Source: a virus (Duplodnaviria; Heunggongvirae; Uroviricota; Caudoviricetes). Taken from it: a stretch of 6,042 nucleotides of DNA. Each line of letters starts with the position of its first letter. The stretch's first letter is position 1. The notes beneath the pieces were generated by a model. It was not told where the DNA came from, did not search any database, and was given only the letters and a program-made list of their open reading frames with translations. The stretch lies in IMG/VR virus record IMGVR_UViG_2698536458_000012; one strand, given 5' to 3'. The position numbers and the translations under genes are program-made. This document shows, piece by piece, positions 1 to 6,042 of the stretch.

Positions 1-1
1 G

Positions 2-271
2 GAAGGAGTGTCCGTTAAACTCAGGCTACCTCAGGTTATTCGCTTCTGGGCATGGGCGGATCAACAAATGATAGACGGTAATGCAGATTGTAACGCTCGC
101 GGCGTTACAAAAAGTGCAATAGATCGCATCACTTTTATGTCTGGTTTTGCTGATGCGTTAATTCAGGTTGGATGGCTGGTCGAAAATGACGGAGGGCTTT
201 CTCTACCTAACTTTGAACGTCATAACGGAAAAAGCTCTAAAAAAAACGGGCGGTTACAAACGAGCGAGTAA
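2..271 (+). CDS. 5'-truncated phage replication protein, N-terminal replisome-organizer-like segment (frame 2)
   Basis: Frame is open from the window edge (codons from position 2); the GTG at 8 has no usable RBS, so the gene probably starts upstream of the window. Segment ends ...GWLVENDGGLSLPNFERHNGKSSKK then TAA at 269-271. The protein-like reading continues in frame 1 straight after the A8 run at 239-246 (KKRAVTNERVTKIRELKRKG...), so this looks like the first piece of a frame-broken gene. Family assignment is from memory, not a search. Confidence 0.55.
   Translation, partial: EGVSVKLRLPQVIRFWAWADQQMIDGNADCNARGVTKSAIDRITFMSGFADALIQVGWLVENDGGLSLPNFERHNGKSSKKNGRLQTSE
89..109. repeat. Inverted repeat TGTAACGC-tcgcg-GCGTTACA (8-bp arms)
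   Basis: Perfect 8-bp arms with a 5-nt spacer, read directly from the sequence; shares the GTAACGC/GCGTTAC core with the palindrome at 299-317. Confidence 0.8.
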
Positions 272-298
272 CAAAAATACGCGAACTGAAACGAAAAG

Positions 299-317
299 GT
301 AACGCTGCCAGCGTTAC
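299..317. repeat. Inverted repeat GTAACGCTG-c-CAGCGTTAC (9-bp arms)
   Basis: Perfect 9-bp arms with a 1-nt spacer; another GCGTTAC half-site follows at 334-340, just upstream of the GAGGAA repeat. Confidence 0.8.
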
Positions 318-342
318 ACAAACGGATCAAAAAGCGTTACCA

Positions 343-380
343 GAGGAAGAGGAAGAGGAAGAGGAAGAGGAAGAGGAAGA
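343..380 (+). repeat. (GAGGAA)6 hexanucleotide tandem repeat, encodes Glu12 in frame 1
   Basis: Six perfect GAGGAA units (343-378) plus GA. In frame 1, the only frame open across this region, it encodes EEEEEEEEEEEE between the organizer-like and DnaT-like segments. Its reverse complement explains the poly-Ser tail of the minus-strand ORF 327-839. Confidence 0.95.
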
Positions 381-458
381 TCTAAATACTGATCTCCCCC
401 TCGCCAAAAACGAGCGTCTAAAAAATTCGAGCCGGAGGCTATTGAGCTGCCCGATTGG

Positions 459-728
459 TTGCCGGAAACACTCTGGCATGAGTGGGTCCGGTTCAGACAG
501 GCATTGCGAAAACCGATTCGAACGGAGCAGGGCGCTAACGGGGCGATACGGGAACTGGAAAAATTCCGTCAGCAGGGTTTTACACCTGAGCAGGTGATTC
601 GACACAGCATCGCCAATGAATACCAGGGCCTGTTCGCGCCGAAAGGTGTTCGGCCTGAGACGTTGCTCCGACAGGTTAACACCGTCTCGTTGCCGGACAG
701 TGCGATCCCGCCAGGCTTCAGGGGGTAA
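459..728 (+). CDS. DnaT-like (primosomal protein I C-terminal domain) segment of the phage replication protein (frame 0)
   Basis: The C-terminus ...ELPDW...VNTVSLPDSAIPPGFRG matches the E. coli DnaT C-terminus (...PDW...VNTVSEPDSQIPPGFRG) as I recall it. Frame 0 is open from 393 after a TGA at 390-392, and the only start codon before the conserved PDW motif is the TTG at 459, so the real N-terminus most likely comes from the upstream frames. Stop TAA at 726-728, 6 nt before the DnaC-like start. Confidence 0.7.
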   Translation: MPETLWHEWVRFRQALRKPIRTEQGANGAIRELEKFRQQGFTPEQVIRHSIANEYQGLFAPKGVRPETLLRQVNTVSLPDSAIPPGFRG

Positions 729-734
729 CGGACC

Positions 735-1481
735 ATGAAAAATATTGCGACAGGCGGCGTTCTGGAACGCATCCGCCGACTGACCCCGCCACATGTAACC
801 GCCCCATTCAGAACGGTAGCGGAGTGGCGCGAGTGGCAACTTGCTGAAGGCCAGAAACGTAGCGAGGAGATCAACCGCCTGAATCGCCAGTTGCGGGTGG
901 AAAAAATTCTGAATCGCTCAGGCATCCAGCCGTTGCACCGTAAATGCTCGTTTGCGAATTACCAGGTGCAGAACGACGGCCAGCGATACGCGTTAAGCCA
1001 GGCGAAATCCATCGCCGATGAACTGATGACCGGGTGTACAAATTTTGCGTTCAGCGGAAAACCTGGTACCGGGAAGAATCACTTAGCGGCAGCTATCGGG
1101 AATCGCCTGCTGAAAGACGGTCAGACAGTGATTGTGGTTACCGTGGCTGATGTTATGAGCGCCCTGCACGCCAGCTATGACGACGGGCAGTCAGGCGAAA
1201 AATTTTTGCGGGAGCTGTGCGAAGTGGATCTGCTGGTTCTTGATGAAATTGGCATTCAGCGCGAGACGAAAAACGAGCAGGTGGTGCTGCACCAGATTGT
1301 TGATCGCCGGACAGCGTCGATGCGCAGCGTGGGGATGCTGACAAACCTGAACTATGAGGTGATGAAAACATTGCTCGGCGAGCGGGTGATGGATCGCATG
1401 GTCATGAACGGCGGGCGCTGGGTGAATTTTAACTGGGAGAGCTGGCGTCCGAATGTTAGCCATTCGAGGGTTGTTAAGTAG
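735..1481 (+). CDS. dnaC: DnaC-like replicative helicase loader (AAA+ ATPase), prophage-encoded homolog
   Basis: The 248-aa product aligns along its whole length with E. coli DnaC from memory: MKN... N-terminus, Walker A FSGKPGTGKNHLAAAI, Walker B DLLVLDEIG, and the MLTNLNYEVMKTLLGERVMDRM block (DnaC: MLTNSNMEEMTKLLGERVMDRM). The G-rich run at 721-725 could serve as an RBS. It sits directly after the DnaT-like gene, as in the chromosomal dnaT-dnaC operon. Confidence 0.92.
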   Translation: MKNIATGGVLERIRRLTPPHVTAPFRTVAEWREWQLAEGQKRSEEINRLNRQLRVEKILNRSGIQPLHRKCSFANYQVQNDGQRYALSQAKSIADELMTGCTNFAFSGKPGTGKNHLAAAIGNRLLKDGQTVIVVTVADVMSALHASYDDGQSGEKFLRELCEVDLLVLDEIGIQRETKNEQVVLHQIVDRRTASMRSVGMLTNLNYEVMKTLLGERVMDRMVMNGGRWVNFNWESWRPNVSHSRVVK

Positions 1482-2479: not shown

Positions 2480-2686
2480 ATGACCCCAATAAACATATTT
2501 ATGACAGTTGCTGATTTCAAACGGCCCAAATTGGAGCTCNNNNNNNNNNNNNNNNNNNNNNNNNNNNNNNNNNNNNNNNNNNNNNNNNNNNNNNNNNNNN
2601 NNNNNNNNNNNNNNNNNNNNNNNNNNNNNNNNNNCGGTGAACTCGATAAAGAGATTCAGGACGAACTGGAGGCCAGGAATGATTGA
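2480..2686 (+). CDS. Small ORF (68 codons if uninterrupted), partly N-masked; possible small regulator upstream of the methyltransferase
   Basis: ATG at 2480; the readable C-terminus GELDKEIQDELEARND is protein-like; TGA at 2684-2686 overlaps an ATG at 2679 that has a GGAGG RBS. The middle is masked (2540-2634) and no RBS is evident, so this is tentative. Confidence 0.25.
   Translation: MTPINIFMTVADFKRPKLELXXXXXXXXXXXXXXXXXXXXXXXXXXXXXXXXGELDKEIQDELEARND
2668..2672 (+). promoter_or_regulatory. Shine-Dalgarno GGAGG for an ATG at 2679 (ORF runs into masked bases)
   Basis: GGAGG lies 6 nt before the ATG at 2679 (MIDKSPSEFSYKD...). That ORF overlaps the stop of the 2480-2686 ORF in an ATGATTGA arrangement, which suggests translational coupling. 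Confidence 0.4.
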
Positions 2687-2862
2687 CAAATCACCAAGTG
2701 AGTTCAGCTACAAAGATNNNNNNNNNNNNNNNNNNNNNNNNNNNNNNNNNNNNNNNNNNNNNNNNNNNNNNNNNNNNNNNNNNNNNNNNNNNNNNNNNNN
2801 NNNNNNNNNNNNNNNNNNNNNNNNNNNNNNNNNNNNNNNNNNNNNNNNNNGGATTTTACATT

Positions 2863-4629
2863 ATGAATGTGCAACATTTTGATTTTTTTACAGATAATGA
2901 GTTTTCTAATCTGGAAAGATATCAAACTTGTAAAGCCATGGCCAAAGGTTATGCGGGCAATTACAAAACCGGGCAGTCAAGGTTGATGCATGCCCGCTCA
3001 TACTGCTTCAGCATCGTAGCTGCATATTGGGATACCCTTGCAAAAAAGCAAAAAAGCAGCATTAAAATGAGGGCAGTACCGCACACTGTTTACATAGAAG
3101 ACATTCCATGTGATGCACGCGAGCTCGCTGAACGAACAGGTGAGCTTATTGCTCAATTTCCGGCGGAGGACGCTGGATATCTGATTGGGTCAATTTATAC
3201 GGTAATGCTGCCATCCGCTTACCGTTCGGAATTGGGGGCTTACTATACCCCCCCACCTTTGGTAGCGCGTCTCTTGGACCTGGCTGAAAAGTCTGGTGTT
3301 GATTTTTCTCATGCATCGGTTATTGATCCTGCGTGTGGTGGCGGTGCATTTTTGGCACCAGTAGCCATTCGAATGTTAAAAAAAGACAAGGGGTCTTCCC
3401 CTGAATGGATGTTGAGGAGAATCAGTCGTCGTTTAAAGGGGATAGAGATCGATCCATTTGCGGCTTGGATGAGTTTGGTATTGCTCGAATCTGTACTAAT
3501 GCCACTATGTGTAAAGGTAAAACGTAGATTGCCTGAAGATACAATTATTGTTGCTGATGCGCTTCAGCAAGATAAATTTTCTGGTTATGATCTTGTGGTA
3601 GGGAATCCGCCTTACGGACGTGTCACTCTCGATATTAAAACGAGAGAAAAATATTCTCGTTCGTTATTTGGTCATGCAAATCTATATGGATTGTTCACCG
3701 ACTTAGCTGTTCGCATGGTTAAAGAGAAAACAGGAGTTATTGCATTTCTTACGCCAACTTCTTTTCTTGGTGGGCAGTATTTCACCGCGCTGCGAACCCT
3801 TTTGACCGAAAAAACTACTCCGTATGCCCTTGATTTCGTCACTGACAGGGATGGGGTCTTTGACGATGTTCTCCAGGAAACAATGTTGACAGCATTCAAG
3901 GCGGGAGAACATAAAGTTCGGGCCCAGGTATCCTCACTTGTCCCTAAGGGGTTGAACAAAGCAAAAATTGAGAAAATAGGTAATGTTGATATAGAAAAAG
4001 GTGGAGCAACGTGGCTTTTGCCACGCGTTAAAGATGATGCCTGTTTTCTTAATGTATTAAAACAGATGTCTACGCGTTTAGCNNNNNNNNNNNNNNNNNN
4101 NNNNNNNNNNNNNNNNNNNNNNNNNNNNNNNNNNNNNNNNNNNNNNNNNNNNNNNNNNNNNNNNNNNNNNNNNNNNNNNNNNNNNNNNNNNNNNNNNNNN
4201 NNNNNNNNNNNNNNNNNNNNNNNNNNNNNNNNNNNNNNNNNNNNNNNNNNNNNNNNNNNNNNNNNNNNNNNNNNNNNNNNNNNNNNNNNNNNNNNNNNNN
4301 NNNNNNNNNNNNNNNNNNNNNNNNNNNNNNNNNNNNNNNNNNNNNNNNNNNNNNNNNNNNNNNNNNNNNNNNNNNNNNNNNNNNNNNNNNNNNNNNNNNN
4401 NNNNNNNNNNNNNNNNNNNNNNNNNNNNNNNNNNNNNNNNNNNNNNNNNNNNNNNNNNNNNNNNNNNNNNNNNNNNNNNNNNNNNNNNNNNNNNNNNNNN
4501 NNNNNNNNNNNNNNNNNNNNNNNNNNNNNNNNNNNNNNNNNNNNNNNNNNNNNNNNNNNNNNNNNNNNNNNNNNNNNNNNNNNNNGCTACTTAATTCGCA
4601 TGTTGTCGATCGGGCGTTCAGGTGTATAA
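2863..4629 (+). CDS. N6-adenine DNA methyltransferase, gamma class (Eco57I/TaqI-like, NPPY); likely the modification subunit of a type II R-M system
   Basis: Motif X GAYYTPPPLVARLLDLA, motif I VIDPACGGGAFL, motif IV DLVVGNPPYG, and a following IAFLTPTSFLGG block, in the gamma-class order. ATG at 2863 is the first start after the mask, but the frame is also open upstream (TTG 2683, GTG 2698) into masked bases, so the true start is uncertain. Bases 4083-4585 are masked; the frame is consistent across the mask and ends at TAA 4627-4629. Confidence 0.8.
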   Translation: MNVQHFDFFTDNEFSNLERYQTCKAMAKGYAGNYKTGQSRLMHARSYCFSIVAAYWDTLAKKQKSSIKMRAVPHTVYIEDIPCDARELAERTGELIAQFPAEDAGYLIGSIYTVMLPSAYRSELGAYYTPPPLVARLLDLAEKSGVDFSHASVIDPACGGGAFLAPVAIRMLKKDKGSSPEWMLRRISRRLKGIEIDPFAAWMSLVLLESVLMPLCVKVKRRLPEDTIIVADALQQDKFSGYDLVVGNPPYGRVTLDIKTREKYSRSLFGHANLYGLFTDLAVRMVKEKTGVIAFLTPTSFLGGQYFTALRTLLTEKTTPYALDFVTDRDGVFDDVLQETMLTAFKAGEHKVRAQVSSLVPKGLNKAKIEKIGNVDIEKGGATWLLPRVKDDACFLNVLKQMSTRLXXXXXXXXXXXXXXXXXXXXXXXXXXXXXXXXXXXXXXXXXXXXXXXXXXXXXXXXXXXXXXXXXXXXXXXXXXXXXXXXXXXXXXXXXXXXXXXXXXXXXXXXXXXXXXXXXXXXXXXXXXXXXXXXXXXXXXXXXXXXXXXXXXXXXXXXXXXXXXXXXXXXXXXXXYLIRMLSIGRSGV

Positions 4630-4776
4630 GCGGAAGTGTTGCTGTTTCGGCCTATGAATTGAATTCAATNNNNNNNNNNNNNNNNNNNNNNNNNNNNNNN
4701 NNNNNNNNNNNNNNNNNNNNNNNNNNNNNNNNNNNNNNNNNNNNNNTATCGCTGGTTTCTATGGAGTGATGATTGC

Positions 4777-5859
4777 ATGAATCTGCCTGTTGTTCCCCCA
4801 TTGAATGTTATCCGGGAAAGATTACAATTAATTTTCCCTGAAGGGACTGAGAATCGTGGATATTTAATTCGGGAAATAGCTGCAAAAACAATTTTTGTCA
4901 TGTTTTATGCTGGTGCGGTTGAGGGGCTGGGGCGATGGATAAGGCCCAGCCAGGTTGTAAGTATGGGAGATTCGCAGGCTGCTCTTACTGATGATGCGTC
5001 CAGAGAAAGCTGGGTAAAGATGACTTTCTCTAAACAAAAGATAAGGCCTGCTGATGCATGGTATGCGGAAAATACGCGTGAGCCAATACGTGATGAAACT
5101 ATAAAAAATGGCCTAATACCTTGCAATGCAATTGTTGAGCGTAAAGGTATACCCACCACATCCTCTCGTCCTCGTTACAGTTTGAATCGCTCTTTTGCAG
5201 CACTCTTTGATGCCGGGCTTGAAGGAGATTCGCTGCTGAGTGCAATAAGTTCCTGGCAAGAAAATCATTTGAACAAAGCCGCTCTTGCTAGGTTGCGTTT
5301 ATTGAAATCAGGGGCAGTGATTGCTGCTGATGCCGTAGTCGTCACTTTCCCAAATGGAGAGAAGAGAACTTTAGCTCCGGGCCCGTCAAGTACAATAGCT
5401 AAGGCCGTCATCGAAGTTTTTGCTCCTAATTTTCTTAAGAATCCAACTGTGCTCTGGTTGTCTGAATCCGGGAATAAAGTTGTTGCTCAGGATGATGTAT
5501 TGGCAAAAGCATTGGGGCTGAATATTGATGCCTCAAAAGCACTTCCAGATATTATTTTGATTGATTTGGGAGAGGACCGAACGGGTTCGGACATGCTTGT
5601 AGTTTTCACTGAAGTAGTTGCGACAGATGGGCCTATAAACAGGGAACGAAAAGTTACTCTCACTCATTTGGCTATTGACGCTGGGTTCAGCGAGAAAAAT
5701 CTTGCATTCCTTACGGCATTTATGGACAGAAGTGCTCTGCCTTTTAAAAAGGCAATACCAGAATTGGCGTGGGGATCTTATGCATGGTTTGCTTCTGAAC
5801 CGGAGCACTTAATTGATCTTCGGGATGGTTATCCGGTAAAGATCAGCCAGAGAAAATGA
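4777..5859 (+). CDS. Putative type II restriction endonuclease, possibly BsuBI/PstI family; partner of the upstream methyltransferase
   Basis: 360-aa ORF co-oriented with and directly downstream of the methyltransferase, sharing its AT-rich composition. GGAG at 4763-4766 could serve as an RBS. The family label comes from recalled similarity to BsuBI/PstI-annotated proteins, not from a search. A possible acidic cluster (PDIILIDLGEDR...VVFTEVVATDG) is present but no canonical PD-(D/E)xK could be confirmed by eye. Confidence 0.5.
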   Translation: MNLPVVPPLNVIRERLQLIFPEGTENRGYLIREIAAKTIFVMFYAGAVEGLGRWIRPSQVVSMGDSQAALTDDASRESWVKMTFSKQKIRPADAWYAENTREPIRDETIKNGLIPCNAIVERKGIPTTSSRPRYSLNRSFAALFDAGLEGDSLLSAISSWQENHLNKAALARLRLLKSGAVIAADAVVVTFPNGEKRTLAPGPSSTIAKAVIEVFAPNFLKNPTVLWLSESGNKVVAQDDVLAKALGLNIDASKALPDIILIDLGEDRTGSDMLVVFTEVVATDGPINRERKVTLTHLAIDAGFSEKNLAFLTAFMDRSALPFKKAIPELAWGSYAWFASEPEHLIDLRDGYPVKISQRK

Positions 5860-6011
5860 CCAAAGTTTGATATCCGCCACGCCCTGAAGGATGGGGGTTT
5901 TACGGTGCACTGGATAAAAAATCGGTTTCATAGATTTGCCCACCGTGGTATACGCCTGCGATAAAAACTTTATTGTCATCAACGGCAAAAGCAATAATTG
6001 TTCTGTGGCGG

Positions 6012-6042
6012 GGTGATGCTGCCAACTTACTGATTTAGTGTA
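6012..6042 (+). mobile_element. IS1: IS1 left terminal inverted repeat and first bases (element continues past the window end)
   Basis: GGTGATGCTGCCAACTTACTGATTTAGTGTA is identical to the canonical IS1 left end as I recall it; insA would read rightward beyond the window. Confidence 0.85.

Follow-up and report, generated by a model that had tools for sequence, protein, structure and literature searches.

A ydaU-type replication gene over three reading frames

The window, that is the whole stretch of 6,042 nucleotides that was analysed (IMG/VR record IMGVR_UViG_2698536458_000012), begins with the end of an IS600 element, followed on the plus strand by a remnant of a ydaU-type gene and by an intact ydaV. 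The remnant consists of three segments, each lying in a different frame. Segment 1 (34–246), delimited by tblastn and DNA alignments, corresponds to approximately codons 36–105 of the intact gene and is read in the frame from base 2. Segment 2 (247–395), delimited by tblastn, corresponds to approximately codons 106–150 in the frame from base 1. Segment 3 (402–728), also placed by tblastn, covers approximately codons 155–262 and the stop codon in the frame from base 3, and represents the DnaT-like C-terminal domain with the terminus ...VNTVSLPDSAIPPGFRG followed by the stop.

Stop-codon maps showed the frame from base 2 to be free of stops until 268, that from base 1 to be open across 241–594 and that from base 3 across 393–725, leaving frame 1 as the sole open frame across 272–389, as the initial annotation had noted. 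According to the ORF listing, the frame of segment 2 contains no ATG, GTG or TTG before 442. When the intact 262-aa homologue was compared with window 1–760 by tblastn, residues 33–105 corresponded to window 26–244 in frame 2 (97%), residues 104–162 to window 241–438 in frame 1, and residues 152–262 to window 393–725 in frame 3 (99%). Because these three collinear pieces have E-values of 1e-61 to 7e-83, the protein-like continuity over the three frames is far beyond chance. The maps and the tblastn pieces thereby confirm a replication gene split over three frames, which had been proposed from the sequence, and the passage of the pieces from frame 2 to frame 1 to frame 3 agrees with the accompanying claim that both shifts are −1. 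The gene had been drawn over 2–728, which holds from base 34 on, bases 1–33 being the terminal inverted repeat of IS600. The runs reported near the breaks are present as described (A8 at 239–246, followed by C247; C5 at 396–400; A5 at 406–410; A6 at 420–425), and the poly-Glu tract reported in frame 1 is encoded by (GAGGAA)x6 at 343–378.

In a megablast search of 5426 complete E. coli genomes, 681 genomes covered at least 80% of window 1–760 with an identity of up to 96.8%, and in every case the match began at window base 33. Beneath these matches the annotation gives either ‘hypothetical protein’ or ‘phage replication initiator YdaU family protein’, with ydaV next to it downstream. Intact homologues, comparison with which had been proposed at the outset, are single-frame: in four relatives annotated in RefSeq and GenBank, from E. 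coli and phage Rac, one unbroken CDS of 262–264 aa is situated between ydaT and ydaV. The phage collection contained only relatives of approximately 92% identity, all of them intact; in phage Rac (MN652886), ydaU and ydaV are both found at 92% identity.

The earlier designation as a replication protein is well founded, given that residues 1–262 of the intact protein aligned end to end with positions 1–277 of the 277 in phrog_2509, ‘replication initiation protein’, with an E-value of 1.2e-89. The homology to phrog_2509 and YdaU exists at the level of the DNA and the pseudogene only, as no single ORF of the window encodes the protein. A Pfam search found no domain in the intact homologue, and the DUF1376-type YdaU proteins are another family. 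Locus L011, one of the Shigella sonnei loci described below, also encodes a 285-aa DUF1376 protein. For the conceptually repaired protein the sole Pfam match was a sub-threshold one to TFIIA, which arises from the poly-Glu tract and was rejected as spurious.

A search of PDB sequences matched residues 170–262 of the homologue to the C-terminal domain of the primosomal protein DnaT (2ru8_A, E 9.5e-5; 9zbt_D, E 3.2e-4), and the terminal VNTVS.PDS.IPPGFRG is common to the intact homologue and the DnaT structures. The link to DnaT rests on this search, because the NCBIfam DnaT equivalog was matched with an E-value of only 0.006, far below its cut-off. The C-terminus is a domain related to DnaT rather than that of a DnaT orthologue, and the DnaT-like domain that had been recognized in the last frame is upheld by the two structures at E-values of about 1e-4.

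Immediately downstream, ydaV (735–1481, plus strand) is an intact DnaC/IstB-like AAA+ helicase-loader gene (Pfam IstB_IS21, E 1.1e-19; Bac_DnaA, E 2.5e-8), whose identical 248-aa protein is found on at least 1000 contigs. The name ydaV is that used by RefSeq at homologous loci, where the gene is the usual downstream partner of ydaU. In four S. sonnei loci (L007–L010) the order is HTH repressor, Cro, YdaT, a 5’ piece of ydaU, IS600, the ydaU remnant, ydaV and DUF977, and four E. coli loci (L001–L004) show the same order around ydaU, in the position between ydaT and ydaV that is typical of the early-right operon in lambdoid prophages. The literature found on ydaU and ydaV concerned the RacR/YdaS/YdaT module only and contained nothing on frameshifting in ydaU.

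Three lesions relative to the intact gene

The first lesion is an insertion. Bases 1–33 (minus strand) are the orfA-side terminal inverted repeat of IS600, a member of the IS3 family, and match the ends that adjoin IS600 transposases; their reverse complement, TGAGGTAGCCTGAGTTTAACGGACACTCCTTCC, begins with TGAGG, like IS3-family ends, and the remainder of the element lies to the left of the window. Window 1–40 gave 6194 matches in 3143 E. coli genomes, with no more than 43 in any genome, and these directly adjoin genes annotated as ‘IS3-like element IS600 family transposase’. In S. sonnei L007–L010, IS600 orfA and orfB are located immediately to the left of the remnant. Comparison of the flanks in L007 showed that the left flank ends in ...GGGAAGGT, where IS600 starts with TGAGGTG, and that the right flank, GGTTATTCGC, follows the IS600 end ...CCTCA, with GGT on both sides. 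The intact gene has GGT once only (GGGAAGGTTATTCGC), which identifies bases 34–36 (plus strand) as the right copy of a 3-bp target-site duplication. All three features of an IS600 insertion were hence found, namely TG...CA termini, adjacent orfA and orfB, and a 3-bp duplication.

As ORFs, the S. sonnei region reads repressor, cro-like gene, ydaT, a 41-aa ORF, IS600 orfB and orfA on the opposite strand, an 87-aa ORF, ydaV and DUF977. The 41-aa ORF across IS600 is the missing 5’ end of ydaU, and beyond the element, approximately 1.26 kb upstream of the remnant, are the start codon and the 35 codons that open the gene. The residues EGVSVKLRLPQ that open the first frame of the window are translated IS600 repeat. 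The window as a whole is bounded by IS600 and IS1 ends.

The second lesion is the A8 run at 239–246 (plus strand), which in alignments A1 and A2 is two bases longer than the A6 (AAA AAA, Lys-Lys) of the intact genes; the single-base change supposed for the first break in the initial annotation is therefore in fact +2. The exact 61-mer with A8 was absent from all 5426 complete E. coli genomes, the best matches being 59/61 and representing the A6 allele. A contig scan for a 36-mer with A8 found nothing among the GTDB species representatives, from which this S. sonnei allele is evidently missing. Each of the five S. sonnei loci (L007–L011) has A8. Three contigs have A7; in L021, which is among them, C and A runs are shortened as well and neighbour genes are broken, so that it looks like the product of long-read homopolymer error. 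Three short contigs (L017–L019) carry an in-frame A9 allele and lack this IS600 insertion; the A9 allele points to a change from A9 to A8 as one possible route. In L019, IS600 interrupts at a different site.

The third lesion, responsible for the second break, is a 10-bp deletion with its junction at 395–401 (plus strand; alignment A2). Intact genes contain two copies of TCCCCCT separated by AAA, preceded by C and followed by CGCC (TCCCCCTAAATCCCCCT is the undeleted form), of which the window retains a single TCCCCCT, one 10-bp unit being gone. The homopolymer runs in this stretch, to which the second break had been attributed, are thus not its cause, which is the 10-bp loss between the TCCCCCT direct repeats. 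At full length and at least 99% identity, the deletion junction is missing from the same 5426 E. coli genomes, and it was found in L007–L011. A further difference, the number of GAGGAA units in the tandem repeat at 343–378 (plus strand), preserves the frame and varies among loci: three copies in L002, L003, L004, L007, L008 and L011, four in L001, six in the window, L009, L010 and L021, and seven in L020 and L022. The copy number is a polymorphism and not a lesion.

The closest intact gene is that of E. coli FDAARGOS_944, which was compared with window 34–760 by DNA alignment. The window differs from it by A8 in place of A6, by six GAGGAA units in place of three (+18, in frame), by the loss of 10 bases and by one substitution, located at window base 193. 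As the +2 and −10 changes each displace the frame by −1, the reading moves by −1 twice.

The spread of the lesions was followed through their products. The 87-aa ORF at 8–271 depends on the IS600 junction together with an A run of exactly eight, and was found, identical, on 492 contigs, complete chromosomes included, whose source names are Shigella sonnei (FORC11_0721 is an example); these fall in 481 index blocks, 14 of which have contigs longer than 1 Mb. A 67-aa version starting at an internal ATG is present on 73 further contigs, and the 89-aa C-terminal ORF is FORC11_0720. Five of five S. sonnei loci combine A8 with both the IS600 and the deletion junction and differ only in having three or six GAGGAA copies, and window 1–760 is base for base that of L009. 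The assignment to S. sonnei is based on the source names of identical proteins and on assemblies labelled S. sonnei that contain the same DNA. Found in hundreds of S. sonnei assemblies, the lesions are inherited alleles of a lineage and not errors of a single assembly.

Heptamers at the frame breaks

The A_AAA_AAC heptamer to which the initial annotation drew attention is present at the first break (241–247), where the codons of the incoming frame, the frame from base 2, are AAA (239–241), AAA (242–244) and AAC (245–247). It stands in the X_XXY_YYZ phase of that frame and is created by the +2 change. A second heptamer, A_AAA_AAT at 420–426 (plus strand), is in phase with the frame from base 1, so that in-phase X_XXY_YYZ heptamers occur at both breaks; this second one had not been pointed out before. 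The same A6T is present in intact homologues, where it is read in frame, and the heptamer is the ancestral AAA AAA (Lys-Lys) pair viewed from the displaced frame. Any in-frame AAA AAA pair reads as A_AAA_AAN when viewed from the frame in need of a −1 correction; the in-phase heptamers follow automatically from ancestral in-frame AAA AAA codons and are side effects, the A8 run being itself the mutation.

No conserved frameshift layout or heptamer was found among the intact homologues, in the 5426 E. coli genomes or in the phrog_2509 profile, which is single-frame from end to end. The initial annotation had assigned A_AAA_AAC to dnaX and IS elements. The second attribution stands for IS1, although the motif is described as an inefficient shifter in E. 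coli (PMC4066793), and the first does not, the dnaX heptamer being given as A_AAA_AAG (PMC4066793; PMC1851650).

A stimulatory hairpin or pseudoknot would be expected some 5–9 nt past the heptamer, or an SD-like sequence before it. The surroundings of the first site contain no recognizable stimulator. No stimulatory structure follows it, bases 248–320 folding at z = −0.95, and no SD-like sequence precedes it within 220–238. The nearest stable hairpin past the site (298–317) starts 51 nt downstream and was rejected as a stimulator at that distance; it is one of two conserved GTAACGC-N5-GCGTTAC palindromes, which are more likely DNA sites. Downstream of the second site, bases 427–500 (74 nt) fold better than shuffled sequences, at −30.6 kcal/mol (z = −2.95; 2/200 shuffles) with a spacer of only 2 nt, and the sequence there is the same in intact genes that need no shift.

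A translatable upstream ORF was likewise not found in the window, IS600 having cut off the start codon and first 35 codons. The only candidate start for such an ORF is GTG at 8, which was rejected as a real start given that it is part of the IS600 repeat and that the SD-like AAGGAG (3–8) overlaps it rather than preceding it.

Origin of the three-frame arrangement

Taken together, these observations make it very probable that 34–728 is a lineage-fixed pseudogene, comprising the 3’ four-fifths of a ydaU-type initiator gene in a Rac-like cryptic prophage of Shigella sonnei and carrying three lesions. A true pseudogene had been among the alternatives offered in the initial annotation, and it is this one that is borne out by the comparison with intact orthologues, against which the three lesions are reproducible over independent assemblies. 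The three mutations are independent and each is disabling. IS600 inserted after codon 35 with duplication of GGT (3 bp), separating the promoter, ribosome-binding site, start and 35 codons from the rest of the gene. The Lys-Lys homopolymer expanded from A6 to A8, and one 10-bp unit was lost between the TCCCCCT direct repeats, a type of deletion made by replication slippage; the +2 and −10 changes spread the protein sense over three frames. Slippage is the presumed mutational mechanism, and in all likelihood no functional full-length product is made.

Decay is probably recent, as indicated by the near-identity to the intact E. coli allele, from which the remnant is one substitution away; with this single difference, relaxed selection is not evident at the level of substitutions, a point counted against the pseudogene though compatible with recent inactivation. 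Two further observations were counted against it. Rare spontaneous −1 slips that restore the sense are chemically possible at in-phase heptamers, and the fold at the second site reaches its z-score of −2.95, though with the 2-nt spacer and in a sequence shared with intact genes.

Of the other explanations, the one that fares best is still improbable: incidental rescue, in which RNA polymerase slippage on A8, unprogrammed ribosome slippage or both would yield traces of a truncated YdaU-like protein with no selected function. Efficient slippage by RNA polymerase usually needs A/T runs of at least nine, a length that A8 does not reach. In favour, RNA polymerase tends to slip on long A runs (PMC4066793) and the heptamers are in phase; however, a second independent event would be required at 395–426, the remnant has before it no start codon served by a usable ribosome-binding site, and there is no sign of selection for rescue. 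It is less probable again that read-out transcription from IS600 combined with slippage at the heptamers or A8 provides a little truncated YdaU/DnaT-like protein that still acts with YdaV in S. sonnei.

Equally hard to credit is the proposal that the breaks are homopolymer errors of sequencing or assembly in a gene that is really intact. An almost identical intact allele does exist in E. coli FDAARGOS_944, a few assemblies have A7 and not A8, and L021, with its shortened runs and broken neighbours, resembles error-prone long-read assemblies. Against this, the A8-dependent 87-aa product is found on its 492 contigs in short-read drafts and complete chromosomes alike, the first change is of two bases, the second is a direct-repeat deletion of 10 bp and no homopolymer miscount, and IS600 with its target-site duplication constitutes a third, structural lesion. 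The recurrence of A8 and of the deletion and IS600 junctions in hundreds of independent S. sonnei assemblies refutes the error alternative as it had been framed. It had also been held that an intact homologue of near-identical DNA would point to an artefact; this rule fails here, FDAARGOS_944 having such an allele and the lesions being nevertheless, to judge by their recurrence, real and inherited.

That two programmed −1 shifts, at A_AAA_AAC (241–247) and A_AAA_AAT (420–426), decode a full-length replication protein has a probability close to nil: the in-phase heptamers at both breaks, the use of A_AAA_AAC by IS1 (PMC4066793) and the fold downstream of the second heptamer speak for it, but the A8 run and two-frame layout are absent from every intact homologue examined (A6, one frame), IS600 has removed the start codon and first 35 codons, the second break is a deletion limited to this lineage, the first site is without a stimulator (z = −0.95; hairpin at 51 nt), its motif is a poor one in E. 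coli according to the same source, and an mRNA that has no proper start and needs two inefficient shifts one after the other would give a vanishing yield.

The pseudogene reading makes the case one of little consequence in itself, an ordinary example of prophage gene decay by IS insertion and small indels in Shigella sonnei, whose genome is known for such decay. Its use lies in two cautions. Any frameshift mutation that falls within in-frame AAA-AAA Lys codons, or before them, inevitably gives a ‘canonical’ in-phase heptamer, and only where the layout is conserved can such a heptamer at the break count as evidence of programmed recoding. Taken alone, an intact homologue of near-identical sequence is no proof of a sequencing artefact.

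Shigella lineages carry hundreds of IS1 and IS600 copies and many pseudogenes. With other IS-driven pseudogenisation in Shigella, the remnant shares IS600 with a 3-bp duplication, additional small indels and bounds formed by IS600 and IS1, and no difference was found. Compared with the IS1 frameshift site, 241–247 has the same heptamer, A_AAA_AAC, in the same phase; unlike the IS1 and dnaX sites, the window shows neither conservation nor a stimulator, its homologues have no overlapping-ORF architecture, and the motif comes from a lineage-specific insertion of two bases. The nearest relatives are the YdaU-type initiators of Rac-like lambdoid prophages (phrog_2509; WP_001737256.1; Rac MN652886), which have 92–97% DNA identity to window 33–760, the same gene order (repressor, cro-like gene, ydaT, ydaU, ydaV, DUF977) and the same DnaT-like C-terminus. 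In contrast to the intact Rac-like ydaU, the copy in the window is interrupted by IS600 and carries the +2 and −10 frameshifts.

Window ends and the change of prophage locus

The left end of the window starts within the IS600 terminal repeat, part of which occupies positions 1-33, and the right end consists of the terminal sequence GGTGATGCTGCCAACTTACTGATTTAGTGTA (6012-6042), which we take to be the end sequence of IS1. The sequence corresponding to this right end is followed by a gene for an IS1 transposase in two Shigella sonnei loci, L012 and L014. With an IS end on either side, the 6-kb window resembles an entire contig from a short-read assembly, interrupted at repeats.

An N-masked stretch (2541-2634) lies between flanks that correspond to different prophage loci. 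The left flank (1-2539) showed a 99.8% match to L009, an S. sonnei locus in which IS600 interrupts the prophage replication-initiator gene ydaU, and the right flank (2635-6042) a 100% match to a different prophage locus carrying restriction-modification genes (L012, L014). These two loci are located approximately 890 kb apart in the complete genome GCA_040189005.1, and the change from one to the other falls within the masked nucleotides. Either the two prophages, which are related, have truly recombined here, or the assembly wrongly joined them over their common DUF977/118-aa region.

Genes on either side of the mask

The ORF at 1919-2332 is 137 aa long by mechanical ORF calling and is annotated in relatives as a 118-aa protein beginning at an internal ATG (window 1976). 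This 118-aa protein matched phrog_1621, a family annotated as of unknown function, with an E value of 5e-56 and showed a weak match to a zinc-ribbon. Downstream, the beginning of an ORF, MTPINIFMTVADFKRPKLEL (2480-2540), lines up with that of queH, which encodes the epoxyqueuosine reductase QueH, in L009 and in the E. coli FDAARGOS_944 locus; the window contains the 5' end of queH alone, with the ORF continuing into the mask. To the right of the mask lies a PstI-like type II restriction-modification pair (2683-5859). It is composed of an N6-adenine methyltransferase, partly N-masked, with an NPPYG motif at ~3606-3620 and a Pfam N6_Mtase/Eco57I assignment matched in relatives, followed by an intact 360-aa endonuclease of the BsuBI/PstI family (4777-5859), for which 4192 blocks of the exact-sequence protein index list an identical protein.

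Variation among ydaU alleles

Two chromosome-scale S. sonnei assemblies, GCA_040188945.1 (L010) and GCA_040188885.1 (L021), carry both ydaV, the helicase-loader gene, and the IS600 transposase in pieces, and L021 additionally has C4 and A5 runs where the others have C5 and A6. The split genes and shorter runs suggest that these assemblies contain homopolymer errors, and the A-run lengths there therefore need caution. A second ydaU allele, found on short contigs labelled S. sonnei (L017-L019), has an intact 5' end with an A9 run in frame, encoding Lys-Lys-Lys. In L019 this allele is cut by an IS600 end directly after ...GGATCAAAAAGCG, equivalent to window base 336, and this insertion at another site is an independent event in the same gene family.

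The GAGGAA (Glu-Glu) tandem repeat at window 343-378 is present in 3, 4, 6 or 7 copies across otherwise near-identical alleles, and its copy number differs between S. sonnei assemblies too. Separately, a fold predicted for window 427-500 (-30.6 kcal/mol, z = -2.95) is more stable than shuffled controls; this region lies inside the DnaT-like coding part and has the same sequence in intact homologues.

Palindromes within the ydaU coding sequence

Two perfect GTAACGC-N5-GCGTTAC palindromes are located inside the ydaU coding sequence (90-108 and 299-317), along with an extra half-site, AGCGTTAC (333-340). The chance expectation for such palindromes was 0.00, and the E. coli and phage Rac homologues of ydaU keep them. 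The lambda origin is located within gene O; by analogy, the palindromes embedded in ydaU could be putative initiator-binding or origin sites.
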